Made by a program: the position numbers and the translations under genes. A DNA stretch of 64,000 nucleotides from Caldisericota bacterium (GTDB lineage Bacteria > Caldisericota > Caldisericia > JAAYUI01): NCBI GenBank assembly GCA_029548865.1, contig JAKPMO010000004.1, forward strand, positions 172,747 to 236,746. Reading direction: 5' to 3'. Below the pieces are notes generated by a model. That model ran no database searches. It saw only the letters and a list, made by a program, of their open reading frames with translations, and was not told where the DNA came from. Positions 2,604 through 55,567 of this stretch are shown in pieces; the stretch's first letter is position 1, and each line of letters starts with the position of its first letter.

Positions 2604-2612
2604 TCATTCCTC

Positions 2613-4676
2613 CTAATTTAGGACGGCAAACCATGCCACAAGTATCAATACCAGTGCTATTGAGGCAAACATTATTGTCGCGTAGTTTGGAAGGTAGCCG
2701 GTTTGCACCTTCCTGACCTTTGAGCCAATGAATCCAGTCAACGCAGCAACGCCATTGACGGCACCATCTATGACATTTTCATCAAACCATTTGACAAGTT
2801 CTGACACCTTGACGGTCAGATACCCTACCAGGTTGACCAGACCGTCAACTATTCCGGCATCGAACCAATAAACGATGTTGCCAAGAACAACCGAGAGCCA
2901 TGCCATTCCATTGACTGCCCCGTCAATGACTGTCCGATCAAACCAGTGGCAAAATTCACTCACATAGAAAAGCGGCTTCACTGCGATGAAAGTCCAGGCC
3001 TCATCAATAAACCACTTATTCTTGAAAAAGAGGTAAAGTGGTTTGAGGACCCTTATGAGTGTTTCTTTTTTGAACCAGCCCCAGGCGTAGATTGCGAGCC
3101 CAAGGAAGATGCCTGCAAGAACAAGCCCTGTGGAGCCAAAAATGAGCGTCCAGTTGACTGCTTCGGATTCGAACTCATGGAAGAATATAAACCTCTGGAA
3201 GAGTTCACCAAAGAACGGTGCCCCGACGAAGCCTATCACCACTGAAAGCACGGCCAGTATTATTAGCGGAAGGGTTGTCTTCCACGAGGCTTCGTGGACA
3301 TGGTTTTCTTTTCTGGGTTTTCCAAAGAAGGTCAGCCAGACACATCTTGTCATGTAGTATGGGGTGAGGAAGGCGGTTATCAGTGCGAGGATAAGCGGTA
3401 TGGTCGAGTGGGTTGCCTCTGCCCCGACAAGTATTGCGTCTTTACTCCAAAACCCGGCAAACGGGAAGAGTCCCGCAAGGGCAAGCGATCCAAGTATGAA
3501 AGTCCACGCGGTGATGGGCATTTTTTTGAACAGTCCGCCCATTTCATGCATGTTTTGGGTATGTGTTGCGTGAATGACCGAGCCTGAGCCAAGGAAGAGC
3601 AAACCTTTGAACATTGCGTGGGTCATGAGGTGGAAGAGTGCAGCAGTGTAGCCAAATTTGCCGAAACCCAGCGCCATTACCATGTAACCCAGTTGACTGA
3701 TGGTTGAATAGGCAAGAACCTTTTTGATGTCATCCTGCACCGTGGCTATTGTTGCAGCAAAAATTGCCGTGAAAGAGCCAACATAAGTGACGACCTTCAA
3801 AGCAATCCCACTGGAATCAAGTGTGAACAGCCCCATACACCTTGCAACAAGATATATACCGGCCGCGACCATAGTTGCGGCATGGATAAGCGCAGAAACT
3901 GGTGTCGGGCCTTCCATGGCGTTGGGGAGCCAGACGTGGAGCGGGAACTGGGCAGATTTGCCCATTGCGCCCATAAAAATCAGGAGTGGTATTATTATGA
4001 GAAGAGCAGGGGCGAGTGATGCAATTGCAGATGGCAGGGCCTCAAGGTTGAGCGTATGAGGGTTTGAGAGTATGAGGCACATTATTATGCCTGTGAAGAG
4101 GCCAATATCTCCAACTTTTGTAACAAAAAAAGCCTTCTTTGCGGCCTGGTATGCGGACCTCTTGTGGAACCAGAAGCCTATGAGAAGATATGAACAGAGA
4201 CCAACCAACTCCCAAAAAGCAAAGAGCTGGAGAAGGTTTGATGCGGTAACTACGCCGAGCATTGCAGTCGTGAAGAGCTGGAGTTCGGCATAGAACCTTG
4301 CAATTCCAGGATCACCGTGCATGTAGTCCTGGGAGAACAGGTGCACAAGGAACGATACCAGCGTGACCACACAAAGCATCATTGCACAGAGCTGGTCGAC
4401 CCTAAACCCGAAATCAAGCGTCAGGTTGCCAGACTGGAGCCAGACAAAGCTGACTGTTGGTGCTGGCCCGTTTGCGATAACGAGTCCAAGCACCACAATC
4501 GAGGTTATCAATGAAATAAAGATGCTTATTGTTGCGAGCTTTGGTCCCCACTCCTTTGCTATTTTTCCGCAGAGGCCAACAATGATGAATCCCAGAAGTG
4601 GAAAGGCCATCGTTAAAACAGCGAGGATCGAGGTGAGGGTCCAGGAACCGGCAAGGGAAGCTACAGTGTGTTCCAT
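2613..4676 (-). CDS. nuoL: NADH-quinone oxidoreductase subunit L with elongated lateral helix
   Basis: FWELVGLCSYLLIGFW, MGKSAQFPLHVWLP, IHAATMV, FWSKD; start placed at ATG 4676 behind AGGAGG. Confidence 0.97.
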   Translation of the reverse strand: MEHTVASLAGSWTLTSILAVLTMAFPLLGFIIVGLCGKIAKEWGPKLATISIFISLITSIVVLGLVIANGPAPTVSFVWLQSGNLTLDFGFRVDQLCAMMLCVVTLVSFLVHLFSQDYMHGDPGIARFYAELQLFTTAMLGVVTASNLLQLFAFWELVGLCSYLLIGFWFHKRSAYQAAKKAFFVTKVGDIGLFTGIIMCLILSNPHTLNLEALPSAIASLAPALLIIIPLLIFMGAMGKSAQFPLHVWLPNAMEGPTPVSALIHAATMVAAGIYLVARCMGLFTLDSSGIALKVVTYVGSFTAIFAATIATVQDDIKKVLAYSTISQLGYMVMALGFGKFGYTAALFHLMTHAMFKGLLFLGSGSVIHATHTQNMHEMGGLFKKMPITAWTFILGSLALAGLFPFAGFWSKDAILVGAEATHSTIPLILALITAFLTPYYMTRCVWLTFFGKPRKENHVHEASWKTTLPLIILAVLSVVIGFVGAPFFGELFQRFIFFHEFESEAVNWTLIFGSTGLVLAGIFLGLAIYAWGWFKKETLIRVLKPLYLFFKNKWFIDEAWTFIAVKPLFYVSEFCHWFDRTVIDGAVNGMAWLSVVLGNIVYWFDAGIVDGLVNLVGYLTVKVSELVKWFDENVIDGAVNGVAALTGFIGSKVRKVQTGYLPNYATIMFASIALVLILVAWFAVLN
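2712..2945 (-). repeat. Three tandem 26-codon repeats (WFDxx(V/I)(I/V)DGxVN...) inside nuoL
   Basis: Trp codons at 2945, 2867 and 2789, exactly 78 nt apart. Confidence 0.93.
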
Positions 4677-4684
4677 TGTCCCTC

Positions 4685-4984
4685 CTACCACTTGAGCAGG
4701 CTGAACTGCTCGAGAGTTACCCAGCCCTTTGCCCTGTACATTGCCACAATTGCACCGAGTCCGACAATGGTTTCAGCTGCTGCAATTGCTATGGCAAACA
4801 CGACCATTGACTGCGCCATGCCTGGATCGGGGAGCTGGCTTGCCGTAGCGATGAAGGTGAGGTTGGCCCCATTGAGCATCAACTCAATGCACATAAGTAT
4901 CCTGATGGCGTTTCTCAGGGTGAGGGCGCCGAGGACACCAAAGCTGAATATTGCAGCACCAAGGATAAGCAAGAGGTAGTTCAT
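4685..4984 (-). CDS. nuoK: NADH-quinone oxidoreductase subunit K
   Basis: RNAIRILMCIELMLNG, AAAETIVGL; 3 TM; operon position. Confidence 0.95.
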   Translation of the reverse strand: MNYLLLILGAAIFSFGVLGALTLRNAIRILMCIELMLNGANLTFIATASQLPDPGMAQSMVVFAIAIAAAETIVGLGAIVAMYRAKGWVTLEQFSLLKW

Positions 4985-5526
4985 ACCTCGTCCTCCTTTT
5001 TCTTTGCCATCTCTATTCCGCCAACAACAGCCGCAAGCAGAAGGAAAGAGGCCATTTCAACAGGCACCATGTAAGGTGTGGAAGCATTGTCTGAATAAAG
5101 TGCGTCACCAACTGCCATCAATGATGTTTTTGGTGGGAGGGCCATTTGTCCCTGGAAGTTAGTTGTTAACTGGCTTTCCGAGGTGTTCATGATGAAGAAG
5201 GAGATTGCACCAAAGAGCGCAAGGGCGACAAAAACACCAAGGACGGCTTGGCGGTTCAGGTGGCTCATCTGCTTTCCAGAGACATCATGCGTGAACATGA
5301 TCGAGAACAGGATGAGTATGGCTATAGCGCCAACGTAGATGGCTATCTGTGCTGCAGCGATAAAATCGGCATGCAACCCTACATAGATTGCCGCAATTGA
5401 CAGGAGGCAACCAATCAGACATATGGCCGCATGGACAATATTTTTTACAGTTACAGTTAGGGCCGCAAAGACAAGTGCGGGGAAGGCGAGTGCCATGTAA
5501 AGAGCCTGTGACATTGTTACATTCAC
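4981..5526 (-). CDS. nuoJ: NADH-quinone oxidoreductase subunit J
   Basis: NIVHAA..L, AQIAIYVGAIAILILF; operon position. Confidence 0.95.
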   Translation of the reverse strand: MNVTMSQALYMALAFPALVFAALTVTVKNIVHAAICLIGCLLSIAAIYVGLHADFIAAAQIAIYVGAIAILILFSIMFTHDVSGKQMSHLNRQAVLGVFVALALFGAISFFIMNTSESQLTTNFQGQMALPPKTSLMAVGDALYSDNASTPYMVPVEMASFLLLAAVVGGIEMAKKKEDEV

Positions 5527-5939
5527 TGTGCACCCCCAAACGGAAGAAGGAGCTCTTCTTTCTCGTGTATCATCCCTTCCCTTGTGTATGAGGAAAGCTC
5601 ATATTTGTGACCAACCTGCAGTGCACCAAACGGGCAAACCTCGACGCATATCCCACAGAATATACACTGCTGGACATTTACACTGTACTTAACCGGGAAA
5701 GGCGTGTTGTCTTCCCTTTTGCCTTTTTCAATGGTGATCGCGTGTGTTGGGCAATTGTTTGCGCAAATTCCGCAGGCGGTGCATTTTTCCCTGCCGTTTT
5801 CATCGCGGACCATTCTCATCAGGGCAAAAAACCTTGGCACCATCGCCTGCTTTTGCTTTGGGTAGCGGAGCGTTATTTTGACCCTGAATATATTTTTAAA
5901 AGTGACCCAGAGAGAGCTTGCTATTCCTGTTCCGTACAT
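5523..5939 (-). CDS. nuoI: NADH-quinone oxidoreductase subunit I (2x[4Fe-4S])
   Basis: CTACGICANNCP and CIFCGICVEVCP. Confidence 0.96.
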   Translation of the reverse strand: MYGTGIASSLWVTFKNIFRVKITLRYPKQKQAMVPRFFALMRMVRDENGREKCTACGICANNCPTHAITIEKGKREDNTPFPVKYSVNVQQCIFCGICVEVCPFGALQVGHKYELSSYTREGMIHEKEELLLPFGGAQ

Positions 5940-5946
5940 GATCACC

Positions 5947-6966
5947 TCATTTCACAAAAACCTTGAGCCAGTTTTCATTTAAAACAACATATGCGGTCAA
6001 GATTATATTGACGAGAGAGAGCGGTAGCATGACTTTCCATGCCATGTTCATGAGCTGGTCAGCCCTGACCCTTGGCAGCGACCTGGAGAACCAGAGGATG
6101 AAACCAACCATAGCAAAGGACTTCAGGAGGAACCAGAACAGTGAAGACAGACCCCATGGAAGGAACTCTGGGCCTGAACCCCCACCAAGATAGAGCGCAG
6201 TAATGATTGCTGAAGTCACAAAGAGATATGTGTATTCTGCAAAGAAAAAGAACGCAAACCTGATGCCGGAGAATTCAACGTTATATCCGGCCACAAGCTC
6301 CGATTCACCTTCTGCAAGGTCAAATGGTATCCTGAATATCTCAGCAAGTGAAGAAACGAAAAATACCAGGAAACCAATGAATTGTGGGGCGATAAACCAA
6401 ACTCTTTGTATCGAAGAGATGTGATATACATTCATACTGCCGGCGAGCATTACCACTGCGATAATCGCCAGTGTTTTTGGGATTTCATAGCTGATTTCCT
6501 GGGCAGCAGTCCTGACAGCACCGAGGAGCGAGAACTTGTTTCCGGATGACCACCCGCCAAGGATTATGCCGATGACAGACAGCGCCATGACGGCCGAGAT
6601 CATCAGAACACCGATTTCAGTGTCCGCGGCAACAAGCTTTATTCCGCCAACAAGTCCAAACGGAATGAAGGCAAAGGTGATAAAAGATGGGGTGAATGCT
6701 ATGAGGGCAGAGTATGAATAGAAAAATTTGTCAGCTGCCTTTGGGATAACATCACCTTTTGTCAGAAGCTTTATCATGTCGGCGAAAGGCTGGAAGAGAC
6801 CCCATGGCCCAACTTCCATCGGGCCAAGTCGCTGGTGCATCCAGCCAAGCAGTTTTCTTTCGGCAAGGGTCAGAAGTAGTGCATTTACCATTACGAACCC
6901 GAAAATGCCTAGCGATATTGCTACCTGGATAAGTGCTACAATCAGATATGGGACGAAGTTTTCCAT
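5947..6966 (-). CDS. nuoH: NADH-quinone oxidoreductase subunit H
   Basis: ERKLLGWMHQRLGP, QPFADMIKL, PFDLAEGESELVAG; start placed at MENFV. Confidence 0.96.
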   Translation of the reverse strand: MENFVPYLIVALIQVAISLGIFGFVMVNALLLTLAERKLLGWMHQRLGPMEVGPWGLFQPFADMIKLLTKGDVIPKAADKFFYSYSALIAFTPSFITFAFIPFGLVGGIKLVAADTEIGVLMISAVMALSVIGIILGGWSSGNKFSLLGAVRTAAQEISYEIPKTLAIIAVVMLAGSMNVYHISSIQRVWFIAPQFIGFLVFFVSSLAEIFRIPFDLAEGESELVAGYNVEFSGIRFAFFFFAEYTYLFVTSAIITALYLGGGSGPEFLPWGLSSLFWFLLKSFAMVGFILWFSRSLPRVRADQLMNMAWKVMLPLSLVNIILTAYVVLNENWLKVFVK

Positions 6967-6970
6967 TTTG

Positions 6971-8077
6971 TCACCTGTCCGAATCGCCCATTGTTGGCGC
7001 CAGCGATGCAAATGCGGCGACGACATCAGGCATGGAGATATTTTGGGCAATATGTGGGAACGACATCAGATTGCTGAAGCTTGGTGAACGGAGTTTTACT
7101 CTATATGGCTTTGAAGAGCCATCAGAAACAAGGTAAACGCCAAATTCACCGATTGGAGCTTCAACCCTGCAGTATATTTCACCGGCCGGGGGCTTGATCA
7201 CCTTTGGCACTTTGGCCATTACAGGCCCTTCCGGAAGGTTTGGCATTATCTGCTCGATGATCCTAACGGACTGCTCTATCTCCTTGAATCTCACCAGGAA
7301 GCGTCCGTATGAATCGCATGTATTTTCACTTATTACATCAAAATCCAGCGTGGGGTATATCTCGTATGGCTCGTCTTTCCTGAGGTCCCTTGCAATGCCA
7401 CAACCCCTGAGGGTAGGCCCCATGCAGGAGAGCTTGAGGGCAGTTTCGGGTTTCAGGATTCCTATGTTTTTTGTCCTTGCCTGGAATATCTCGTTTTTAT
7501 GGAGCATTGAAGCGTATTCTGGGAGTCTGTCTTTGAAGTAGTGAATGAACCTGTCGAGTTTTGAGAGGTATCCTTCTGGAAGGTCGAACTTGACGCCGCC
7601 GAACCTGAAGTAGTTGAAGGTCATCCTTGATCCGGAAACCTCTGCCATCAGCTCCAGGATGTACTCCCTTTCCCTGAGGCAGTAGACCATCGGGGTCATC
7701 GATGCCAGGTCGAGTCCCTGCGCGCCAACGTTTACAAGGTGCGCCGCAATGCGGTTAAGTTCCATCATCAGGACTCTTATGTATTGTGCCCTGATTGGCA
7801 CCTCGATCCCCATGAGTTTTTCAACGGCCTTTACATAGGGATACTCATTGAGGAAACCAGAGATGTAATCAAGCCTGTCTAGATAAGGAATAAATTGTTG
7901 GTAAGTCAGTCTTTCGGCAATCTTTTCTATTCCCCTGTGGAGATAGCCAAGCACTGGTTTGCACCCGACCACAATTTCACCGTCAAGGGTGAGGACTGCT
8001 CTAAAAACACCGTGAGTGGCAGGGTGCTGGGGGCCAAAGTTCACTTCAAGCAGGTCAGTTCTGATTTTTTCTTCCAT
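6971..8077 (-). CDS. nuoD: NADH-quinone oxidoreductase subunit D
   Basis: NFGPQHPATHGV, GYLHRGIEK, RLDY; no NiFe-binding CxxC motifs. Confidence 0.96.
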   Translation of the reverse strand: MEEKIRTDLLEVNFGPQHPATHGVFRAVLTLDGEIVVGCKPVLGYLHRGIEKIAERLTYQQFIPYLDRLDYISGFLNEYPYVKAVEKLMGIEVPIRAQYIRVLMMELNRIAAHLVNVGAQGLDLASMTPMVYCLREREYILELMAEVSGSRMTFNYFRFGGVKFDLPEGYLSKLDRFIHYFKDRLPEYASMLHKNEIFQARTKNIGILKPETALKLSCMGPTLRGCGIARDLRKDEPYEIYPTLDFDVISENTCDSYGRFLVRFKEIEQSVRIIEQIMPNLPEGPVMAKVPKVIKPPAGEIYCRVEAPIGEFGVYLVSDGSSKPYRVKLRSPSFSNLMSFPHIAQNISMPDVVAAFASLAPTMGDSDR

Positions 8078-8086
8078 TTTCCCTCC

Positions 8087-8518
8087 TCAGTCAGTATCTG
8101 TGAAATCTTTGCGGAGAGGATGCCCTGTGAAATTCTCCGGTGTTATTATTCTTTGGAGGTTTGGATGGCCCTCAAACACTATTCCAAACATGTCATAGAC
8201 TTCGCGTTCCAGCCAATCTGCCGCTTCCCAGTCAGGCGTCAGGCTCTTGATTTTTGGGTCCTGTGCAAGCAGTGGAGCGAAAATAAAGACCCTTTCCTTG
8301 GTTTCCCAGTTGTCCAGCATGTAGACCATTTCAAAACCATTGTCTTTGCATTTTGCGGTCAACATCGAGAGGATACTGAAACCAGATTCGCGGAGCTTCA
8401 GGCATGTCTCGGCCGCCTTTGAGCTGTCTACATTGATCATCAGGGCTGTTTCTGGGGCAGGCATTGGAGAGAGGTCAATACCAAATTTTTGCTTTGCAAT
8501 GTCTTTGGAGGTGCTCAT
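8087..8518 (-). CDS. nuoC: NADH-quinone oxidoreductase subunit C (short form)
   Basis: [26 protein letters not shown]. Confidence 0.95.
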
Positions 8519-9018
8519 GGTTGCCTCCCAAGATTGGCTCTTTCTTTCATGATTTTTTTCTCAAGCTCAAGAATGGCAAACTGGAGGGCCTCTGGCCTTG
8601 GTGGACACCCTGGGACATACACATCGACAGGAATTATCTTGTCGACGCCTTTAACTACGGAATAACTGTCAATGAAAGGCCCGCCAGAACAGGCGCAGGC
8701 ACCCATTGCAATGACCCACTTCGGGTTGGGGATCTGCTCATAAAGGAGTCTTGTAGGTTCTGCCATCTTTTTTGTTACAGTTCCTGCAACGATCATGACA
8801 TCGCACTGTCTTGGAGTTGGTCTGAAGAAGCAGCCATGCCTGTCGAAGTCGTATCTTGGCATCCATGCCTGCATCATTTCGAATGCGCAGCAGGCTGTTG
8901 CGTAAGTGAGTGGCCAAAGGGAATTCTTTCTGGCCCAGCCCACCAGCCAGTCCAGTGGTGCAAGAAGAACAGTTGATTTTTCAAGTTCTGTTGGTGCAGG
9001 TGTTTGTGTCAATCCCAT
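8515..9018 (-). CDS. nuoB: NADH-quinone oxidoreductase subunit B
   Basis: [27 protein letters not shown] (N2 cluster ligands). Confidence 0.96.
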
Positions 9019-9377
9019 TTCAACAGCCCCCTTCCCCAAGCATAGAAATATCCAACGAGGAGTATCGCTATGAAGAGTGTTACTTCAAAAATGGCGTAAG
9101 TTCCGAGTTCTTTTACTTTTACGGCCCATGGGTAGAGAAAAACAGCTTCCACATCAAATGCGACGAATATCAATGCAAAAACGATATACCTGATGTTGAA
9201 TTTTATTTTTGAATCTGTCTTTGGCGGTATTCCGCACTCGTAGGACGTTGTTGCGAGGTCACTATCGATTCTCTTTGGTCTTAATGCAAAGGCGAGGAAG
9301 AATGCTATAAGACCCATGGCCAGACCAACCAGGGCGAAGATGCCCACAAACAGGTAACCGAAAGAATAATCGTTCAA
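9009..9377 (-). CDS. nuoA: NADH-quinone oxidoreductase subunit A
   Basis: [22 protein letters not shown] start with GGAGGT SD. Confidence 0.95.
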
Positions 9378-14668: not shown

Positions 14669-15417
14669 TATTTTGCCTCCAGAATGGACCTGCAGAATTC
14701 GAGGTCCTCTATTTTATCAACATCGACGCCCAGCTCCGGGCACTGCAATATTGGTGCTTTTATGGTAACGCCAAGCATTTTTGAAATTCTCTTTTCAAGC
14801 TCGGGTATTTCGACATTTTTGAACAAAAGCAATCTCAGAAGGAACGGCACACCAAGCTGGAGGGCCTGTTTTATGGCGGACTTTCTCCTCTTTGATGTTT
14901 CCTCGACTATTGGCTCCACCTTTTTGTAGGCGGTTTTGCTGATGTAGAAGAGGTTTCCGATTTTGACATTTCCCTCTTTGATGCGGAGAAAAGTGCGCTT
15001 TGTTCCGGGGAACATCCTCAGGGTGTCTTCTTTGGTTATGATTGGCAAACCAAGATCACACCCTGTTTTCTGGAGTGCAGAAACCACCATGTCAAAGGTT
15101 TTTTCGGTTACCAGCGGGATGTCGTTTGTTGTCACAACGAGATACTCTGTCTCTGAGGCATCCACAAGGCGATCTATGTTTGCCTTCTGGCTGTCGCCCT
15201 CTTCCAGCATCAGGTCCACTTTTGATTTTATGGAATCCGGATAGCCGTTGCCAACAAGGATGATCCTGTTCGTGAGGGAAGCCTTGCGAAGCGCATCGAT
15301 GACGTACTCAATCGATGGTTTTCCTGCAAATGAAAGCATGCCCTTGTTGGGCACGCCCTCATTTGCGAACCACGGCTCTACTCCGCCGCCGCCTAATATT
15401 GCAAAATCGATTTTCAT
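14668..15417 (-). CDS. MobA-like nucleotidyltransferase (NTP_transf_3-type) protein
   Basis: ILGGG, NKGML..AGKP, NDIPLV, DVDK.EDL. Confidence 0.8.
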   Translation of the reverse strand: MKIDFAILGGGGVEPWFANEGVPNKGMLSFAGKPSIEYVIDALRKASLTNRIILVGNGYPDSIKSKVDLMLEEGDSQKANIDRLVDASETEYLVVTTNDIPLVTEKTFDMVVSALQKTGCDLGLPIITKEDTLRMFPGTKRTFLRIKEGNVKIGNLFYISKTAYKKVEPIVEETSKRRKSAIKQALQLGVPFLLRLLLFKNVEIPELEKRISKMLGVTIKAPILQCPELGVDVDKIEDLEFCRSILEAK

Positions 15418-17747
15418 TTTGGATATGTCAGCGTTATCTTTCTTGTGGCGCCTTCCCAGGCCACACCTGCCCCAAGAGCCTCTCCGACAAATCTTAGCGG
15501 TAACATGGTTTTTGCGCTAATGATTGTTGGATAGAGCTTTTGGGCCTTTGAGTCGATGAAGACCTCTTTGCCATTTATCTTGGCGGTTTTCTTGCCAATC
15601 CACAACTCAACGATGTTTTTCCCATTCCAGAGCGATTGCGTCAGGGTGACCTTTTTTTCTGCACCATCATAGCCAACCTGTGCTCCAAGGGCCTCTGCGA
15701 CTTCCCTTATTGGCATGTATGTGCTCCCGCCAAGTTCTTTCGGAAGCGGTGGCGAGGAAGATGTTGGAGCAGTTTTGAGTGTCACCTTCAGGCCGTTTAT
15801 AGTGATGTCTGTTTTGTCCAGCCATAATTCTATTGTGACGGCATAAATTACATCGACCGTTATTTTTTTGTTCTGGCTGCCCAGTGTCGCCGAGATCTCG
15901 AACTTGTTGAGTCCTGGGATAAGTATTACTGAGTAGTTAGCCTTTCCATTCTGATCCACGGTTGCCGGCTTGCCACCAACCATCACTGTTGCTCCCTTTG
16001 TTGTGGAGATAGGGATTGTGTAGCTTGGAGAAGTGGTTCTCAATGGAGTACCAGAGGAACCATTGACCGAGAGATCAAGAAGTGCTGCAGACTCGACCAA
16101 TACTTTAACAGGAACAACAATTTTTCCTGCGTTGGAGTCAATTGTCACTTCGCCTGTCAAGGCACCTTCCGTGTTCGGCTCTAACGTGATGTTTATCTTG
16201 CATCTGTCACACTTGAATGATGAAGGATCAACTTTTATCCATGGAGCGCTCGCAGTAATTGTTCCCTCGAGCATTCCGCCTTCGCCAGCCTGCTCGATGA
16301 TTTCGATCTGGAGTGATTTTTTTGTGTTCTTTGGTATTTTGCCAAAATCCAGCTCTGAAGGCTCCACCTTCAGAATCATTCCGGATTTTTTGTAGGTGAA
16401 ATTTACCGCAATTTCTGAATTTCCGCCGTTGCTTCCAATCGACAGCTTCCCTGAATATGGTCCCGGTTCGAGACCAAGTGGGTCAACGGTCATGATTGTT
16501 TCAAAAGAACCATCTGGCTCGATCTCGAATTCCGAATTTTCAGTCCTGAGCCATGACTCTGAAGACTTGATGGTCGCTGAAAGTTTTCCGGTTCCAACGT
16601 TTTTGAAAGCGAGCTTTTTGGTTATGGTTGTCGAAATCTCACCGAGGTCAAACGATTTTTCTGCGACTTCAAGCTTTGGCTCTTCGGCCACTTTTTCGCA
16701 TTCAAACTTCCAGATGATGTTGCCAATCAGTTTTTCGCCTGATTTTGATTTTATGCCGGACTGGCCGCTTTTTGCGTAGAGCGTATACTTCTTGCCCTCT
16801 TCAAAAGCCTTGTTTGGAGCAAACGTGCACTTTGACCCTGAGACAGACGCTTTTCCAGGAACAGCGAGGCCATTCTGGTCAACCAGGAGCACCGTGCCCT
16901 CGTTGAATGTTGCAGGGTCCATATCCTTGTCAAATGGTAGCGAAAGTGGCGAGTTTGGCGATACCTTGCCAGGAAGCGGACTGGTGAGATGCGGTGCTTT
17001 GATTTTCCATGCGCCATAGGCATAAACCTCGAATGTGTCCTGATCGAATATCGCAACCGCGGCACCTAATTCTTCTTTTGTCCAGTCTTCTTTGAGATCA
17101 AAACTGGCTGTGAGCTTCTTGGTTTCGCCATTTTTGATGCGCATGGTTGAACCCTTTGCAGAGGGCTTGATTGCATGCACGACATGTTGGAAATACTGGT
17201 CTTCCCTGTCCACATTGTCTTCAAAGAGGAAGAAGGTATATCTGAGTGTTGCCTGGTCGAGAGGACCAAACTGCTCAACCATGGCCTCAAAATCGATCTT
17301 TTGCCCTGCGGCTTCTTCCTTCAGTTTCCCATTCAGCGAAATATTGAAGCTCAAGGGTGAAGAGCGGACCTTTGAAACCGTGTCCTCAACTTCCTTTTCA
17401 GTCATACCCGACCTCTTTATGAAATTGCCATTAAAAGCTATCGTCGGATAAGACTTTCTTTCGTACATCTGCCCCCTTTTGTCGACTTCTTCAATGTAAA
17501 ACTCGTCGTTGGGGTTTGAATGCAGCCTTAATTTGATAATAGAGTCCGAGCCAAGTTCAGACTCGAGTTTGTCCATACTGCGCACGGCAGTGTGACACTT
17601 CGTTCAGTTCGGCTCCACAAAAATTTCGCAGAATGCTGCACGTTTCGGAGTGAAATCTGAAACGGAGAGCGGCATTGTCCTCGAGTAGACCTGGACGGTC
17701 TGTGAAAGTATGAGAGAAAGCAGAACAATTACTGACAGTTTTTTCAC
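15414..17747 (-). CDS. Secreted probable selenoprotein: Omp28-like thioredoxin fold (UxxC) + Ig-like domains + copper-amine-oxidase-N/stalk domain, 777 aa
   Basis: GTG at 17747 (GTGA overlap with alr stop, AGGAGG SD), signal peptide MKKLSVIVLLSLILSQ, in-frame TGA at codon 48 in EIFVEPN-U-TKC, open through to 15414; YPTIAFNG cis-Pro motif; C-terminal TYMPIREVAEALGA/TMLPLRFVGEALGA. Confidence 0.85.
17570..17597 (-). promoter_or_regulatory. Candidate bacterial SECIS hairpin
   Basis: UGUC-A-C-ACUGC[CGUGC]GCAGU-A-U-G-GACA beginning 7 nt after the UGA; loop 17 nt from UGA with G as second loop base. Confidence 0.7.
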
Positions 17748-18874
17748 AGCTCGGCCTCCTTTCCTGATTGTTTGTAAACAAATTTAGTCCTGCCACCAAG
17801 ACCAGTCAAGATTTCATATGGGGTGGTTCTCAGGACCTCAGATAAATCTTTTACAGTAACAGCCTCATCGGTATCTTTTCCAATGAGCGTTACCCTGTCT
17901 CCAACCTCAACTCCTGGAATATCTGTTACGTCAATCATGAACTGGTCCATGCAGATTCTTCCTACTATTTTGGTTTTTTTGCCCTGAACCAGCACGAAAC
18001 CACCATTTTTTAGGTTCCATCTCCATCCATCGGCGTATCCTACGGGCACAGTTGCGATGACTCTTGTAGAATCAGCGATAAAATCCCTGCCGTAGCCGAC
18101 ACTTTCACCCTTGTGGATGACTTTCATGTCGCAAACAACGGAAGTCCATGAAAGAATCGGCAGAAGTTCCTGGTCGAACCTGCCGCCAACTGGCACCCCG
18201 TAGAGCATCATGCCTGGCCTGACCATGTCAAAATGATACTCCGGATAGTTCATTGTTGCAGATGATGCAGAAGCATGAAGCATTGGTGATGCCCCCATTG
18301 CCTTTGCCTCAAGGGCCACTGCAGTGAACAGGTCAGCCTGGCGCTTTGTGAATTCAGGATCAGAATCAGCCACAGCAAAGTGGGTAAACAGACCACTGAT
18401 CCTTATTTTTGGGAGCTTCATTACACTTTTTATGAACGGCACCGAGTCCTTGACCGATATTCCGGCCCAGCACATGCCTGTATCAACCTTTATGTGTACC
18501 GGTACCGGAGCAGGTGTTAGCCTGTCAAGTTCCACTGCAAGCTGGTAGTCAAAAATGGTTGGGGTGATCTGGTAATGGAGTATGTCAGAAGCATAGGCAG
18601 AGTGGGTATAGCCAAGTATGAGTATTGGGCAGACAACACCCCCTGCCCTTAATTTGATTGCCTCCTCCGGGGTCTGGACGGCAAGCCAGTCTGCCCCGTT
18701 ATGGGCAAGAGCCTGCGCGATTGCGACATCACCGTGCCCATAGGCATTGGCTTTGACAACAGCCATCACCTTTGGCGCCCGGGAGATCCTCCTCACCAGG
18801 CCAAGGTTTGATATCAGCCTGTCGATATCTACCGTTGCCAGTGATGGCAATACTTTCTCTGGTGCAAGACTCAT
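17744..18874 (-). CDS. alr: Alanine racemase
   Basis: AVVKANAYGHG (PLP Lys), HIKVDTGM, VGYADG, GRICMDQ. Confidence 0.97.
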   Translation of the reverse strand: MSLAPEKVLPSLATVDIDRLISNLGLVRRISRAPKVMAVVKANAYGHGDVAIAQALAHNGADWLAVQTPEEAIKLRAGGVVCPILILGYTHSAYASDILHYQITPTIFDYQLAVELDRLTPAPVPVHIKVDTGMCWAGISVKDSVPFIKSVMKLPKIRISGLFTHFAVADSDPEFTKRQADLFTAVALEAKAMGASPMLHASASSATMNYPEYHFDMVRPGMMLYGVPVGGRFDQELLPILSWTSVVCDMKVIHKGESVGYGRDFIADSTRVIATVPVGYADGWRWNLKNGGFVLVQGKKTKIVGRICMDQFMIDVTDIPGVEVGDRVTLIGKDTDEAVTVKDLSEVLRTTPYEILTGLGGRTKFVYKQSGKEAEL

Positions 18875-20208: not shown

Positions 20209-21593
20209 CTGCCTCCAAGCATTGCCTTGCATTTGATCGAGGGCCCGCCGCCATCGACTTTGGCAGGCTGTATTTTCCCACAAGCACCGGAACCCATTGC
20301 AAACTCAAAGTCGTTTCCGACCATGTCCACACTTTTCAAAACATCAAAAGCCTGGCCGGAGATGGTAACGTTCTTCACAAGCCTGCCGACCTTTCCTTTG
20401 GCTATTTCGTAGGCCTCACCGCATCCGAACATGAATTCTGCGTTTGCGTCTGCTTCGCCGTTTTCAGGGTTGACCAGAAGGTAGCCCTTGTCTACCGAGC
20501 CAATGATCTCATCAAAACTGTTTTTGCCAGGTTTTATGTAGGTGTTTCTCATTCGTATTATCGGGACATCGGTGTAGCCCCATGCCCTTGCATTGCCAGT
20601 GGGTTCTACACCGAACAACTCGGCGGTTTCCCTGCTGTGGAGATATGAAGACAAAATGCCGTCTTTTATGATGACCGTTCCCCCGGCCTCTACACCCTCA
20701 TCGTCAACCTCGATGTAGCCTGCAGGATTGCCAATCTTCATCAAATTTGGCCCGTCATCAACCATCGTGATTAAGTCTGAAGCTATTTTCTGGCCAATCT
20801 TGCCTGCCGTTATCGACCCTGACAATACAAAATCCGCCTCGACCGTGTGCCCTATTGCCTCATGCGCAAGGATGCCAACCATGCCCGGTTTTAGAACAAC
20901 GTCGTGCATCCCGCCTTCCACATAAGGTGCATCTAGTTTGTCAACGGCTATCCTGGCAGCTTTTTCGGCCATCTGCTCTGGCGTCCTGGAATCAAAGAGT
21001 TCATCAAAGCCGCCAACGACGCCACTGGATTCAAACGAGCTTTGCATCTGGCTATCTTTTGAGGCAACAGCGATGCAGTAAAAATCAGGCTTTGAAAGCC
21101 TGCTGTGGCACTTTGCCCCGTCATTTGTCATTACCCATTTGCTTTCTGTTGTTTCGGAGTAATAAGTCGTAGCAGTAACGATAAACTGAGAGCTTTTCCG
21201 GATCAGCGACTCGATCCTTATGGCCAAGGCTATTTTTTCTTCAAACGGGATGTCTTCGAGGTCTCTTTTTGTTTTGTATTTGTAGTCTTTTTTGGCCAGC
21301 CTCTTTGGGGATAGCACTGGCACTTTCTTTTGTGATTGCGAGCCAATTGTAATAGCTGCTATCTCGGCATCTTTCAGGGCCTTGGCAAGAGAATCCGGAT
21401 CGAGGTCAGATGTTGAAGCAAAGCCCCATGCGCCGTTCCTGAGCACTCTTATGCCTGCCCCAATGCTCCTTTTGGAGCTGGATGTTTCAAGCAGGCCGTT
21501 TTTTATTGCCACGCCGCGGCTCGTCTTGTCAGAAATCCTTATTTCGCAGAAACCATTGCTCAAAGACAATGTTTTTCCAATCAGATCAAACAT
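20205..21593 (-). CDS. tldD: TldD family metalloprotease
   Basis: HEAIGHTVEAD, DDEG, RMRNTY, CGK..P. Confidence 0.94.
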   Translation of the reverse strand: MFDLIGKTLSLSNGFCEIRISDKTSRGVAIKNGLLETSSSKRSIGAGIRVLRNGAWGFASTSDLDPDSLAKALKDAEIAAITIGSQSQKKVPVLSPKRLAKKDYKYKTKRDLEDIPFEEKIALAIRIESLIRKSSQFIVTATTYYSETTESKWVMTNDGAKCHSRLSKPDFYCIAVASKDSQMQSSFESSGVVGGFDELFDSRTPEQMAEKAARIAVDKLDAPYVEGGMHDVVLKPGMVGILAHEAIGHTVEADFVLSGSITAGKIGQKIASDLITMVDDGPNLMKIGNPAGYIEVDDEGVEAGGTVIIKDGILSSYLHSRETAELFGVEPTGNARAWGYTDVPIIRMRNTYIKPGKNSFDEIIGSVDKGYLLVNPENGEADANAEFMFGCGEAYEIAKGKVGRLVKNVTISGQAFDVLKSVDMVGNDFEFAMGSGACGKIQPAKVDGGGPSIKCKAMLGGR

Positions 21594-22984
21594 CAGTCCT
21601 CCTTTTGTCCAGTAGCGGCCGCTTTCCTGATAATAATTATTGGAGTCTGGTCATCCTCGTTGCCAGCGGGATTATCGGCCATGAATTGCTCAAGCTCTTT
21701 CTTGTCTACGCCGTCAGAGGCGCCAACCGCCCAGGCTATTCCCATGTCGTTGGCATCAATGATTGCGGCCTCAAAACCAGTTTTTTCCTTTATTATCTGG
21801 GCAAGCTTGTCGCTGTTGTATGGCCCTGGTATGACAAAATAATCGTAGGGTGCCATTGATGCCGGCATGTCATCTATCATTGCGACCTCGGGTCCTGCCA
21901 CCATATAAAACCAGCCCTTTTTGCCAATCAATTTACCCAAAGCGCCGCAGAACGTTGCAAAAAGTATTTTTAGGAGTCCTGCTATTTCAATTGCCACCTG
22001 GAAGGAGAGCGGATTTGCAAGGGGCGAAGTTGTGGCAAAAGAATTTTTTGATGAAGCTGTTACGAAACCAGAAAGCATCCTCGCGATCCTTGTGGGTTGG
22101 ATTGTTTCCGCAGAGTAGATCCTTGCCTGTGTTATTGCAGCCACAGCAGAAGCAAATGTTACTATGTCACCTTTTTGGGCAATGCCTTTTATTGATTCTA
22201 TAATAACTTGTGCTGCATCATCTTCCTCGGTGATGATTTTTGTTTTTACGGGTATCTTTACCGAGCCAGGTTTTGACGGAAGAGGCGGTTTCAGGATTAT
22301 CATTTTTGCCTCATCCGGAAACACCCTCTCGATCTCTTTTAGACATTTTCTGCCTTTTCTTCTCCTGGTACCCTCTTTCCAGATTTCCAGGGCTTTTTCT
22401 TTCTGGCCAGTTTTTTCGTAGCATTGGCCAAGCAGAACAAAGTCGGTCTCATAGAAATTTGATGGTTCGAGTCTTTTGAACTCCTCGAAATACCAGATTA
22501 CATCCTTGAAACGACCAAGCTCAAAAAGGCAATGCGAAATCCTTTTTAAAAGGTACCTGTAAATTGAGAGTATGTCTCTCCTGAGGTGCTCCTTGCCAAT
22601 GTCCATCCCTTTCACATACACCTGAAAGGCGGCCTCAAGGTCCTTTTTATGGTAGTAATAAACATCGCCCATTGAAAGGTAATACCAGTACTGCGTTGGT
22701 CTCTGGTCAAAGGTTTTTTGTAGCAGGTCAATGGCCTTCTGGTATTCACCAGAAACACTGTAGATTCTGGCCAGCAATCTCACCGAACGCGGATAGTTGC
22801 AACCACCACGGTCAACCACCTTTTCAAGAAAAGCTGTGGCTTGTTTTTCCTTTCCAGTCTTTCTCAGTGCTTTGCAGTACAGCTCTGCATCTCTGTCCGA
22901 GGTTCTTGCTGGGTCTGGGTTTCGATAGGCTTTGACAATATTTTCATAATCATTTGATTCGAGATATTTTCTATACGATGGCAT
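21593..22984 (-). CDS. TPR-repeat protein fused to CofE/F420-0:gamma-glutamyl-ligase-like domain
   Basis: N-terminal TPR-like helices (LARIYSVSGEYQKAIDLL, LGQCYEKTGQKEKALEIW); C-terminal IPVKTKII, GWFYMVAG, IDANDMG, DNPAGN..QTP. Confidence 0.75.
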   Translation of the reverse strand: MPSYRKYLESNDYENIVKAYRNPDPARTSDRDAELYCKALRKTGKEKQATAFLEKVVDRGGCNYPRSVRLLARIYSVSGEYQKAIDLLQKTFDQRPTQYWYYLSMGDVYYYHKKDLEAAFQVYVKGMDIGKEHLRRDILSIYRYLLKRISHCLFELGRFKDVIWYFEEFKRLEPSNFYETDFVLLGQCYEKTGQKEKALEIWKEGTRRRKGRKCLKEIERVFPDEAKMIILKPPLPSKPGSVKIPVKTKIITEEDDAAQVIIESIKGIAQKGDIVTFASAVAAITQARIYSAETIQPTRIARMLSGFVTASSKNSFATTSPLANPLSFQVAIEIAGLLKILFATFCGALGKLIGKKGWFYMVAGPEVAMIDDMPASMAPYDYFVIPGPYNSDKLAQIIKEKTGFEAAIIDANDMGIAWAVGASDGVDKKELEQFMADNPAGNEDDQTPIIIIRKAAATGQKED

Positions 22985-23525
22985 CCTGATCTTCCTGCGC
23001 CAGTCCTGTTCTTTCAACCAGCTCAAATAATTTTATCAAAACATTTTTTACAGATTTCTTGTCCTTGGCAACACATGATACAACCTCAACACTGTCATCA
23101 ATTCCGAGCATCTGCCCGACCTGCTCCGGGTTTAGGGAACCTGTGACATCTTGTTTGTTTGCCGCAACAACACACGGTATCTGGAGTTTTGGCAAAAAGA
23201 ATGAAAGATAACGCCTTGCTTCTATAATTGACTTGTAATCTGCAGAATCAACAATCAGCACCATACCTACGGCCCCGACGGAAAGGACATCCCACATGTA
23301 TGAAAATCTCTCCTGCCCTGGTGTTCCAAAGATATAAAGCACAAGATCATCATCAATTGTCAGCCTTCCAAAATCAAGTGCGACTGTTGTCTGGTTTTTT
23401 ATAACCCTTGTTTCGTCTGTTACTGCCTTCTCTGTTGAAACAACAGGTATTTCAGAAACCGATTTAATTAAACTTGTTTTGCCGGATGAGAACGGCCCGG
23501 TCACAAGTATTTTGATTCTTTTCAT
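22971..23525 (-). CDS. MglA/CvnD-like small GTPase
   Basis: GPFSSGKT, TTVALDFG, FGTPGQERF, NKQD. Confidence 0.9.
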   Translation of the reverse strand: MKRIKILVTGPFSSGKTSLIKSVSEIPVVSTEKAVTDETRVIKNQTTVALDFGRLTIDDDLVLYIFGTPGQERFSYMWDVLSVGAVGMVLIVDSADYKSIIEARRYLSFFLPKLQIPCVVAANKQDVTGSLNPEQVGQMLGIDDSVEVVSCVAKDKKSVKNVLIKLFELVERTGLAQEDQDAIV

Positions 23526-24163
23526 AGTTTCCTGAGATAATCAATAATTTTTGATATGAATGATGGTTTGGATTTTGGATCGTTTGGTTTTGGCTGAACC
23601 GTGTCTGTTCTTTGTTTGACCGCAGCCCTTCTTATGACTCCAACCTGCAAAAGTGAATAAAAAATTCTGATTGCATCAAATTCTGGCCAACCAAGGTCTT
23701 TGCTGATGTCGCCCAGGGATTTCTCGCCATCTATGAGCCCGATCACCTGCCACTGCTTTGAATCAAAAACGAGATCATAGGTTTCGAACTCCAACGAAAG
23801 TGAATAAATGATGTTGGTGGAGGGAATTTCACGCCTCAGGGTCTCGTAAAGTTTTATTCTTCCAGAGGCCTCCAGTAGTAGCTGGTCCATTGAAACAATG
23901 ATGTTTGTTTCAGGACTGTTTTCATCACTTATGAACCTGAAGCTGCCGTTTTCCGCCTCGCATATCGCGAAAAAGGCCTCCTTGCCGTTCTGGTTGTCCG
24001 CAAAAGCGGCTGTTATGCCGCCATTCATAAAAAAAACTGATGCTTCAAACCTTCTTCCGGACTGCTCCAGAAAAAGCTGGAGCTTGCCGGTTCGTTTTGA
24101 AATCCAAATAAACTGGCATATTTCTATGACTGAAAAATCTTTGATGTTGCCTGCAAGTTCCAT
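23522..24163 (-). CDS. DUF4388 (PATAN-like) domain protein with C-terminal wHTH-like region
   Basis: LAGNIKDFSVIEICQFI..KRTGKL, GSFRF, QLLLEA; IDGEKSLGDI. Confidence 0.8.
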   Translation of the reverse strand: MELAGNIKDFSVIEICQFIWISKRTGKLQLFLEQSGRRFEASVFFMNGGITAAFADNQNGKEAFFAICEAENGSFRFISDENSPETNIIVSMDQLLLEASGRIKLYETLRREIPSTNIIYSLSLEFETYDLVFDSKQWQVIGLIDGEKSLGDISKDLGWPEFDAIRIFYSLLQVGVIRRAAVKQRTDTVQPKPNDPKSKPSFISKIIDYLRKL

Positions 24164-33112: not shown

Positions 33113-33475
33113 GTGGAACTGGACACAATTCTTGAAGGATTGAAGGACGAGCTCCCCGAATTCGTTGCTGCGGCCGTTGCAGGTAGTGATGGCCTGACAA
33201 TCTCGACCCTCGCAAAAGATAGCTCGGTTGACATGAGTATGGTAGGGGCCGAATTTGCCTCGATTGTCTCGATGGTTTCAAAGGCAGGGAGAGAAATAAA
33301 CGCAGGGAAGCTTCACAGTTCAATCTTCTCGACAGAAAATTATCACATCCTGACTTCACAAATTGGTGAAACTCCATTCTTCCAGATAGTCTGCCTCAAA
33401 TCCGATGGGAACATTGGAAAAGCAAGATATTTAATGGGAAAGGTTGAGGCTAGAATCAAGGAAGCAATTCTATGA
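33113..33475 (+). CDS. Roadblock/LC7 (MglB-like) protein
   Basis: AAAVAGSDGLTI, GNIGKAR; GTG start behind AAGGAGG. Confidence 0.85.
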   Translation: MELDTILEGLKDELPEFVAAAVAGSDGLTISTLAKDSSVDMSMVGAEFASIVSMVSKAGREINAGKLHSSIFSTENYHILTSQIGETPFFQIVCLKSDGNIGKARYLMGKVEARIKEAIL

Positions 33476-48006: not shown

Positions 48007-48027
48007 CAGACAGGCAAGGAAACAAGA

Positions 48028-49123
48028 ATGTTGATAGACGAAATACAGAGGTCCATAGATCAGGTAAAAGAACGGCTCAACCAGGCCAAGGAGTTTCTTT
48101 GACCCGCTAAAGGCTGAACGGGAAAAACTTTCAAAACAGCTGGAGTCTCCAGAGGTCTGGAATGACCAGCAAAAAATTGCCGAGACCAACAAAAAAATTG
48201 CCATATTCGATATCAAACTCAATGACCTGGAACAGGCCGAACATTTCATTGGCGAAGCCGAAGTTTACATGGAGTTTGTCCAGATGGGCGAGGGCTCAGA
48301 GAAAGAGCTTCTTGGCGCAATAAAACAGGCCGAGGCAAAGATACAGGAAATAGAGCTCAAAAACCTCCTCTCCATGGAGCATGACCAGCTCAATGCCTTT
48401 GTTTCATTCAGCTCCGGTGCAGGCGGAGTCGACGCCCAGGACTGGACTGAAATGCTCATGAGGATGTACACAAGGTGGGCAACCAACAAGGGTTTCAAGG
48501 TTACTGTTGCTGAATACAGCCCTGGCGATGAGGCTGGTGTCAAATCAGCAACCCTCCACATCGAGGGCCCGTATGCCTTTGGTTTCCTCAAGAGCGAAAA
48601 GGGTGTCCACAGACTGGTCAGGATTTCCCCGTTTGACGCTAACCACAGAAGGCACACCTCATTTTCACTCGTTGAGGTGCTCCCGGAGCTCCCGCCTGCA
48701 GAAGATATTGAAATAAACCCCGATGATTTGAGGATTGACACGTTCAATGCTTCAGGCCACGGTGGTCAAAACGTCCAGAAGAACGATACTGCTGTCAGGA
48801 TAACGCATATACCAACCGGCCTTGTGGTGGCATGCCAGAATGAACGTTCACAGGGTCTCAACAGGGCCATGGCCATGAAAATCCTCTCATCAAGATTACA
48901 GGACCTGGCAAATGTCCAGCTTGCAGAGGAAGAGAAAAAACTCAGGGGGCCAAGGGTCTCAATTGAGTGGGGCAACCAGATACGCTCCTATGTTCTTCAG
49001 CCTTACACTCTCGTAAAAGACAACAGGACAGGCTATGAGGTAGGAAGTGTCGACAGAGTTCTTGAGGGTGACCTGGATGAACTTATCTGGGCCTACCTGA
49101 AATGGGCGGTAAAAAACAAATGA
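48028..49123 (+). CDS. prfB: Peptide chain release factor 2 with programmed +1 frameshift
   Basis: ATG 48028; AAGGAG-TTT-CTT-TGA-C at 48088-48103; +1 frame continues into the 48269 ORF with SPF and GGQ motifs. Confidence 0.96.
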
Positions 49124-50982
49124 CCAAAAGGAGCTTTATTGTCGGAACAGCAGGACACGTTGACCACGGGAAATCAACCCTTGTCACAAGACTGACCGGT
49201 ACTGATCCCGACAGGCTCCCTGAAGAAAAAGCCAGACAGATGACGATCGAGCTTGGTTTTGCAAAGCTTGACCTCCCCTCCGGAAGGATGTGTGGAATCG
49301 TTGATGTGCCAGGCCACGAGAAACTGGTCAAACAGATGCTCATGGGCGCACAAGGGTTTGACCTGGTAATGTTCACTGTTGCATGTGATGAAGGACCAAA
49401 ACGCCAGACCTATGAACATCTATCAATCCTGGATATGATTGGGATCCGGGTTGGTGTCATTGTGCTGACAAAATGTGATTTGCCCCACGACGATGCAGTT
49501 TTGCAATCACAACTCGATTCAATGCTTACAAACACCTCTCTCGAGGCAATGCCAAGAATAAAGGTTTCAGCCTACACTGGGGAAGGGATCGACGAACTCA
49601 GGCAAACTATCGATGATCTGCTTGACCATGCTATCCCAAGACCTCTTAATATGCCAGCGTTCTATCCAGTTGATAGAGTATTTACAGTCAAGGGATTTGG
49701 AATAGTGACCACCGGCACCCTCTGGCAGGGCCAGGTGAAAAAGGGTGAAGAGCTGGAGATATTCCCTTCAAGGAAAAAAGGCAAATTGAGAGGGATAGAG
49801 AGTTTTGATGCCCAGATTGAAACTGGTGATGCTGGTTCAAGGCTTGCCCTCAATTTTCAAAACCTCGATAAGGAAGACATTTCAAGGGGAAACATTCTTG
49901 CCACCCCTGGGAGATTTGACCCGACAACAGAATTTGATGCAAAAATTCGCCTCATTGAAAAAGTGAAAAGGCGTACAAGGCTAAAGTTCCATTATGCAAC
50001 TATCGAGCAGGAAGTTGATTACAGCGATATAGGAGGTGGTTTTGCAAGAATAAAATTGGAAGGGCCGCTCCCCCTCACAAAGGGTTCCAGATTTATCCTG
50101 AGGTCGATTGCCCCGGCAGATACGGTTGGCGGTGGTGAAGTGGTAGACCTCCACCCAGAGGGTAAGCTCAATGCCCCGGAAACGCTCCAGAGACTTGAAA
50201 ATATCGGCCAGATTGATGATGAAAGCTATCTTTCAACGATGGTTTTTGAGCGTAGGAAATCAGGTTTTGAAGTGTCCAGGCTCAGAGGGCTTGTAAACTG
50301 GCCAGATGACAGATTTGCATTGTTTCTCAAAAATGGCCCCCATAAGACAATATCCGGCAATCTCTATGACAACAATGTTTTTGATTCATCATCAGCAAAA
50401 TTGAGCAAATTGCTGACAGATTTCTTCAAATCGAACCCGTCCAGGAATTCCATTTCAAAAAGCGAGGCAAAAGCCAAGCTGATGCCGGAGATAAACGAGA
50501 ATCTTTTTTCAGAAATCCTTTTGACTGCCATAAAAGAGCCATTGCACATGATTGGTCAGGATATATCCCTTTCAAATCAGACCATACAAAAATCACAAAC
50601 CGAGGTTGGAATAGAAAGAGAACTCCTGAGAGAGATGTTCTCCCCTCCAACTCTCTCGGAGCTCAGAAAAATACCTGCTTTTTCCAGAAACCTGCGTGAA
50701 ACCGAAGCAGCAATTTCAAAAATGATCGCGGAGAAAATAATAATCAAATCTGTAGATGATCTTTTCTTTCACAAAAAAGCTGTGGTAAAGGCTTATCTAA
50801 TAATGAAAGCACTCATAGAAAAAGATGGTTCAGCCAAACTCGCACAGTACAGGGACGAAGTAGGTACAACTAGAAAGTATGCCCAGGCAATGCTGGAGCT
50901 ACTTGATGCCCTTGGCTTAACAAGAAGAGTAGGTGAAACCAGAGTGCTCGGTTATAAGACTCTTGACATTGGTGGTAAATAG
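49120..50982 (+). CDS. selB: Selenocysteine-specific elongation factor SelB
   Basis: GTAGHVDHGKS, MTIELGF, DVPGHE, TKCD; C-terminal winged helix TRKYA..LELLD..TRRVG. Confidence 0.96.
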   Translation: MTKRSFIVGTAGHVDHGKSTLVTRLTGTDPDRLPEEKARQMTIELGFAKLDLPSGRMCGIVDVPGHEKLVKQMLMGAQGFDLVMFTVACDEGPKRQTYEHLSILDMIGIRVGVIVLTKCDLPHDDAVLQSQLDSMLTNTSLEAMPRIKVSAYTGEGIDELRQTIDDLLDHAIPRPLNMPAFYPVDRVFTVKGFGIVTTGTLWQGQVKKGEELEIFPSRKKGKLRGIESFDAQIETGDAGSRLALNFQNLDKEDISRGNILATPGRFDPTTEFDAKIRLIEKVKRRTRLKFHYATIEQEVDYSDIGGGFARIKLEGPLPLTKGSRFILRSIAPADTVGGGEVVDLHPEGKLNAPETLQRLENIGQIDDESYLSTMVFERRKSGFEVSRLRGLVNWPDDRFALFLKNGPHKTISGNLYDNNVFDSSSAKLSKLLTDFFKSNPSRNSISKSEAKAKLMPEINENLFSEILLTAIKEPLHMIGQDISLSNQTIQKSQTEVGIERELLREMFSPPTLSELRKIPAFSRNLRETEAAISKMIAEKIIIKSVDDLFFHKKAVVKAYLIMKALIEKDGSAKLAQYRDEVGTTRKYAQAMLELLDALGLTRRVGETRVLGYKTLDIGGK

Positions 50983-50991
50983 TATTAGTGT
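50963..50991 (+). promoter_or_regulatory. Promoter for selC/trk overlapping the selB 3' end
   Basis: TTGACA-17nt-TAGTGT, 15 nt before the tRNA. Confidence 0.6.
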
Positions 50992-51006
50992 CTCCCTTCT
51001 GATCGC

Positions 51007-51098
51007 GGGAGCGGTTGGGCTCTGGTGGGCCTCCTGGACTTCAAATCCAGTGTGGGGTGAACTCCCCGGGTAGGTTCGATTCCTATGCGCTCCCGCCA
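51007..51098 (+). tRNA. selC: tRNA-Sec (TCA)
   Basis: CTGGA-CTTCAAA-TCCAG anticodon arm, 6-bp D stem with TGGT loop, long variable arm, GCCA end, next to selB. Confidence 0.96.
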
Positions 51099-54883: not shown

Positions 54884-54921
54884 ATTAAAACGGGCCCTGA
54901 CCTTGTGGTCAAGGGCCCGTT
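54884..54921 (-). terminator. Intrinsic terminator
   Basis: AACGGGCCCT..AGGGCCCGTT stem followed by a T-rich run on the minus strand. Confidence 0.8.
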
Positions 54922-54946
54922 GGAAATTATTTCTTCTACTCTTGAA

Positions 54947-55417: not shown

Positions 55418-55510
55418 AAATTCCTCCTTATTCGGTTTGTATTGTTAAATAATATGGGAAATAACCCTGAACATAATTTACAAAGAATTTACAAGTATGG
55501 GCAATTTGAT

Positions 55511-55546
55511 AAAAAAATGGGTCGCCATTTTTTGGCGACCCATTTT
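55511..55546 (-). terminator. Intrinsic terminator
   Basis: AAAATGGGTCGCCA..TGGCGACCCATTTT perfect stem with T tail. Confidence 0.85.
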
Positions 55547-55567
55547 GTGCTTCTAGGATATTTCGAA

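Follow-up and report, generated by a model that had tools for sequence, protein, structure and literature searches.

The window analysed here, a stretch of 64,000 nucleotides from a Caldisericota bacterium, carries on its reverse strand, between alr and a gene for an NTP transferase, a reading frame that is interrupted by one TGA codon. This frame begins with GTG at position 17747, contains its sole in-frame TGA at 17606-17604 (codon 48) and ends with a terminal TGA at 15416-15414; the ORF obtained with translation table 11 begins at 17585, 54 codons past the GTG. The initial annotation had proposed that the frame reaches through this single TGA up to the GTG, and our re-reading of the sequence confirmed it. 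With the internal TGA given as U, the surrounding residues are KRAAFCEIFVEPN-U-TK-C-HTA (EIFVEPN-U-TK-C-H). The gene and its features are:

15414..17747 (-), complete gene, coding for 777 aa with UGA48 as selenocysteine
17755..17760 (-), Shine-Dalgarno motif AGGAGG in the final part of alr and 7 nt upstream of the GTG
17676..17747 (-), predicted signal peptide, approximately residues 1-24, with two basic residues, a hydrophobic core and no Cys
17604..17606 (-), in-frame TGA, predicted Sec48 of U-T-K-C (Cys51 resolving), from UGA conservation and Cys alignment
17577..17591 (-), upper stem-loop of the predicted SECIS, 5-bp stem and 5-nt loop N-G-U-N-N, with the first loop base 18 nt past the UGA
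16998..17660 (-), Omp28/HBP35-type module, thioredoxin fold (residues ~38-128) and Ig beta-sandwich (~134-248)
16704..16967 (-), Big_5 Ig-like domain, residues 261-348 (Pfam)
16113..16679 (-), two BACON / choice-of-anchor-D-like Ig repeats, residues 357-448 above cut-off and 461-545 below
15432..15731 (-), copper amine oxidase N-terminal domain (Cu_amine_oxidN1), residues 673-772 (Pfam)

The AGGAGG motif had been described as overlapping the stop codon of alr. The motif is present in the last alr codons, and the overlap with the TGA stop is made by the start codon instead (GTGA); the gene's own stop in turn overlaps the start of the next gene. In all 11 family genomes the start codon is found exactly 47 codons before U, and the N-terminus shows two basic residues among the first five and a best 11-residue hydropathy of 2.8-3.5. 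This signal-peptide-like start is conserved, and export of the protein is predicted. A lipoprotein signal was considered and rejected, since the first 39 residues contain no Cys that could be lipidated. Gene callers lose both the export signal and the active site and list the protein as one of about 720 aa without catalytic residues. Such truncation by standard annotation had been anticipated and is borne out by five database proteins (P0017-P0020 and P0022; 716-724 aa) that match the head domain only from beyond the UGA.

The gene order tldD-pmbA-alr-gene-NTP transferase-bacA was kept in 10 of 10 records, and the neighbouring genes (pmbA, tldD, alr, NTP transferase, bacA, recG) gave no redox or functional clue. 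Upstream of tldD the window encodes a DUF4388 protein, an MglA-like small GTPase and a TPR protein that in part resembles F420 ligase (21593-24163, minus strand), likewise kept in 10/10 records, and a Roadblock/LC7 protein is encoded elsewhere (33472-34722, plus strand). A complex I-like cluster with NuoA, B, C, D, H, I, J, L and M-type subunits occupies positions 1113-9377 (minus strand) and runs to the window edge; the NADH-input subunit was not seen in the window. Two plus-strand ORFs at 54905-55849 (314 aa) and 56173-57750 (525 aa) had no Pfam match and no NCBIfam match better than E 0.46.

Pfam searches recovered the Big_5/BACON-like repeats and the copper-amine-oxidase-N domain that the initial annotation had suggested, with a BACON_2/HYDIN-like Ig domain at residues 357-448 and a weak BACON match at 498-545. 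The copper-amine-oxidase-N domain was found at dozens of places in this genome. A model of the head domain based on a 75-sequence alignment (pLDDT 92.8, pTM 0.90) shows a thioredoxin fold followed by an Ig sandwich, the order seen in HBP35, with U48 directly preceding the first helix and the UxxC motif thus at its start; a single-sequence model of the full protein reached a pLDDT of 34.8. The best PDB match of the head model in Foldseek was HBP35 (5Y1A; E 1e-12, TM 0.80), followed by 2AXO and Omp28. All aligned domains (30/30 and 75/75) keep the resolving Cys and the Pro of the YPT/FPT loop, as catalytic thioredoxins do. The residues ahead of CxxC are TW in 146 of 191 domains; in the Sec proteins the Trp is replaced by Asn, Glu or Gly, and therefore the chemistry of the site may differ from that of the usual TWCxxC.

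The TGA occurs at the same codon in 11/11 family genomes, which belong to three genera and have head-domain identities of 35-100%. Other homologous loci encode Cys (TGT/TGC) at this position in 18 of the 18 loci displayed, one more locus (L017) lying outside the display. This alignment agrees with the initial proposal that the TGA stands at the first Cys of a thioredoxin CxxC. The TGA is repeated in all four metagenome loci, and contigs from four of four public runs span it; three of the bridging records are without any other letter nearby, and the fourth has two other letters at positions that are not given. Public runs with the gene are mostly from sludge, biogas and biofilm samples. A read error, raised earlier as a possible explanation, is contradicted by both the conservation and the bridging contigs.

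The machinery for selenocysteine insertion is partly encoded in the same window, where selB and the tRNA-Sec gene were found as initially noted:

49102..50982 (+), selB, Sec-specific elongation factor with GTP_EFTU, Beta-barrel_SelB and SelB-wing_3 domains
51007..51094 (+), selC, tRNA-Sec with anticodon TCA

The initial annotation had named selA and selD as genes to look for, and both, the latter with a TGA of its own, are present in the genome outside the window, which completes the selABCD set. Strong selA matches were obtained in 11/11 family genomes, compared to two weak matches among the 82 other genomes of the phylum, and selD with a TGA occurs in 11/11 family genomes versus 0/82 others, so that over 93 genomes of the phylum the UGA of our gene tracks selA and selD. 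Genome G006 carries two selD copies, both with TGA (C1:1000572-1001486 and 1657703-1658614). In the window secA, prfB, selB and selC stand in a row (45427-51094, plus strand). In prfB the first 24 codons are followed by CTT-TGA-C (48097-48103), preceded by an SD-like AAGGAG, which we take to be the usual RF2 frameshift site.

In our gene the UGA is followed by a hairpin with a stem of 5 bp, a loop of 5 nt, G at loop position 2 and 17 nt between UGA and loop. Its stem is paired in 55 of 55 cells across the 11 genomes, with two-sided changes in four of five pairs, and none of 500 shuffles reached its pairing or covariation score; slid controls were 15-42% paired. Shuffles did as well on two of five measures of covariation (pairs changed on both sides and further pair types), and the 11 genomes are kin. 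RNAalifold predicted this hairpin as the sole helix on 105 columns, and the residues that it codes for vary (HTAV, HPIV, PPTV, HPAV) while the base pairs are kept. The geometry of the bacterial SECIS consensus model in PMC13188914 (loop of 3-9 nt, stem of 4-16 bp, G at loop position 1-2, 16-37 nt after the UGA) is present in 11/11 genomes. The gene thus resembles the bacterial genes with in-frame SECIS treated there in loop, stem, loop G and UGA spacing, but the energy limit of the same model, -7.5 kcal/mol, is reached in only 7 of 11 genomes (40-nt folds): the hairpin folds with -9.4 kcal/mol in this genome, with -4.7 to -5.9 kcal/mol in genus g3 and with -7.4 kcal/mol in one g2 genome. In this genome selD, too, carries a hairpin in the equivalent place. 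Judged by geometry and pairing, the hairpin of our gene is very probably a SECIS, and the gene offers a well-supported SECIS candidate with natural compensatory changes.

Taken together, the gene is real and very probably encodes a selenoprotein with Sec at residue 48. Since the UGA is kept and followed by a co-varying hairpin, SelB likely inserts selenocysteine at this residue, which would give a single protein of 777 residues. The thioredoxin-plus-Ig model and the match to HBP35, a protein of known activity, lead us to read the product as an exported thiol-disulfide oxidoreductase on Ig repeats. The signal peptide would be cleaved on export, the C-terminal copper-amine-oxidase-N domain would hold the protein in the envelope, and three or four Ig domains would raise the head off it. 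Sec48 would then attack a substrate disulfide and Cys51 resolve the intermediate. Electrons would most likely come from a CcdA/DsbD-type membrane protein (DsbD_TM was present in 5/5 genomes tested), and the likeliest clients would be the numerous exported proteins with cysteines in that envelope. We consider this full mechanism, a cell-surface oxidoreductase with SelB-inserted Sec48, fairly probable.

An exported selenoprotein might also use its U-x-x-C for another purpose, be it oxidant scavenging, DsbA-like oxidative folding, or the holding of heme or soft metals during uptake. HBP35, the closest structure, is described in PMC2907840 as binding hemin and supporting growth when hemin is short; in addition the motif departs from the usual TWCxxC and the gene does not adjoin ccdA. 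Against such functions stand the invariance of the resolving Cys and the loop Pro as well as the presence of a transmembrane reducing route of the CcdA/DsbD type, and we regard them as unlikely. Much less plausible is a reading of the UGA as Trp, Cys or another standard residue, in a recoded genome or at a leaky stop. The weak hairpins of g3 and of one g2 genome would fit it, as would propeller proteins of the family (see below) whose UGA stands at a position that in other repeats is never Cys and at times Trp, but frames in this genome most often end in TGA (449 of 1018 long frames), hence the code is not reassigned, RF2 (prfB) is encoded in the window, the UGA aligns with the catalytic Cys, and its presence follows that of selA and selD. 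That the TGA is a nonsense mutation or assembly error, leaving a cytoplasmic fragment of 723 aa or nothing, has next to no probability: databases do list truncated forms, but the same TGA recurs in all family genomes and metagenome loci, the truncated start (17585) sits within the hairpin loop, and over codons 26-47, ahead of the TGA, synonymous differences outnumber non-synonymous ones in each of the three genus groups (15/3, 56/46 and 23/8). By these comparisons the UGA codon is under selection.

We also compared the protein to known families. The best NCBIfam match is NF045500, 'Omp28-related selenoprotein', over residues 3-249, with a score of 35.4 bits for the full length and 37.0 for the domain, which does not reach the curated cut-off of 200. 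Cys forms scored 33 (a paralog in the same genome) and up to 96 (homologs elsewhere), and none of 66 reached the cut-off. Table 1 of PMC13188914 equates NF045500 with GOS_C, a predicted UxxC selenoprotein; a 2008 paper on marine reads had introduced GOS_C as a UxxC protein of thioredoxin-like fold to which no function was assigned (PMC2398784). The GOS_C sequences in supplement file 4 of that paper follow the pattern E/D-x-F-x-x-x-N-U-x-x-C with Sec at the same site. Both proteins thus carry an Omp28-related thioredoxin domain in which U takes the place of the first Cys of CxxC, and they share the Asn before U, a residue that is also present in a Cys paralog. In contrast to the marine GOS_C, the present protein has 777 aa, Big_5/BACON repeats and a copper-amine-oxidase-N domain, and comes from Caldisericia of sludge. 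The initial annotation had left the novelty of the family as a selenoprotein unverified: GOS_C/NF045500 is a precedent for Sec in such an Omp28-related domain of thioredoxin type, but the present proteins form, by sequence comparison, a distant Omp28-type UxxC group with a new architecture (the Ig stalk) and a new host lineage.

Membership in the Omp28 family lipoproteins was rejected, with NF033782 scoring 21.6-22.7 bits against a cut-off of 150 and no PF11551 match (cut-off 34.9) at E <= 1. HBP35 of P. gingivalis (PDB 5Y1A) shares the thioredoxin and Ig module in both sequence and structure matches, and Omp28 of P. gingivalis (PDB 2R2C) matches the Ig half of the module. Both differ from our protein in having Cys instead of Sec, an identity of 12-17% and another surface-attachment domain. 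HBP35 is reported in PMC2907840 to be surface-located, to bind hemin and to have a thioredoxin activity that needs its two Cys. Closer to the host, Omp28-Big_5 proteins of the Cys type from other Caldisericia families (~545 aa, WCGWC) have the same order of head and Big_5, but lack the SECIS-like hairpin and the copper-amine-oxidase-N domain, and their hosts lack selD. Six of 12 such loci in a sister family adjoin an alr homolog, as the present gene does, which hints at a local change from Cys to Sec; the arrangement with alr is tail-to-tail there. Phylogenetic trees, in which GOS_C was absent, unite the Sec proteins in a single long-branched clade (support 1.0 and 100) but do not resolve its sister group, and thus do not place the Cys-type Omp28-Big_5 proteins in that position.

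Paralogous UxxC stalk proteins, for which a genome scan had been suggested, were not found: U occurs only in this gene among five Omp28-like domains in G000 and five in G006. The other four Omp28-like thioredoxin domains of G000 are of the Cys type and belong to further large proteins, of which three have a copper-amine-oxidase-N-like domain at the end:

C16:75610-80853, Cys-type Omp28-like domain
C19:157016-159151, Cys-type Omp28-like domain
C19 near 145158, Cys-type Omp28-like domain
C20 near 152760, Cys-type Omp28-like domain

Our literature searches found no paper pairing Omp28 with selenoprotein and, judged by title and abstract, nothing on the subject for Caldiseric* combined with selenocysteine, selenoprotein or selenium. 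The input set of BSepDB, as described in PMC13326102, includes Caldisericota genomes. A second Omp28-type selenoprotein group, far from GOS_C, provides a test case for how often Cys becomes Sec.

Screens of G000 (93% complete) and the single-contig G006 for further Sec candidates, which were not exhaustive, gave SelD, the present gene and two additional kinds:

G000:C23:79995-80528 (L157:3996-4529) (+), small Ig protein, 177 aa, with orthologs L158-L167 and L169
L177-L185, e.g. G006:C1:599142 (+) and 1895193 (-), PQQ-type beta-propellers with in-frame TGA

The small Ig protein consists of a signal peptide, a G-U-C(-P) or G-U-(Gly/Ser)5-C motif, a Pro-rich linker and an Ig domain that is weakly similar to Mo-co_dimer/Big_13, with no curated family above cut-off. 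All 11 family genomes have its TGA, one of them in a fragment at the end of a contig; a SECIS-like hairpin follows in each of the 10 examined. A search for a Cys homolog found none. The propellers have the motif x-U-D-x-x-L-Y-C-L-D-G, with the TGA in the penultimate blade and followed by a fixed hairpin, and occur at nine loci in seven of the 11 family genomes, none of them G000, and in 0/82 others. The codons of C-L-D-G are identical in all nine loci. In a comparison of 47 propeller repeats from G000 and G006, the strongest hairpins were those of the two repeats with UGA, and the other 45 never have Cys at this position. Signal peptides are visible where the start lies within the locus analysed; several starts lie outside. 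A literature search on propeller selenoproteins found no related paper.

Genes for selU and yqeB were found in none of the 11 family genomes (0/11 each), and molybdopterin oxidoreductases such as formate dehydrogenase in none of five genomes. In five genomes no TGA was found inside matches to NiFe hydrogenase, MvhD or thioredoxin (20, 15 and 49 matches). G000 encodes a NiFe hydrogenase with MvhD-type genes in the Cys form (C19 near 229000-235000) and a ccdA gene beside two thioredoxin-like genes (C17:147600-148960). The Sec candidates found in the family besides SelD, namely this gene, the small Ig protein and the propellers, are all predicted to be exported. It is an evenly balanced proposition that the family might keep its Sec machinery only for selenium at the surface. 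The stalked thioredoxin would then have gained Sec independently of GOS_C, the small G-U-C Ig protein would have no Cys homolog, the propellers would have gained Sec where the repeats never have Cys, and cytoplasmic selenoenzymes would be absent or in the Cys form. A UGA at a non-cysteine position, as in the propellers, would be missed by searches that rely on Cys/Sec pairs. In this lineage, selenium would thus seem to have its use at the cell surface and not in core metabolism.
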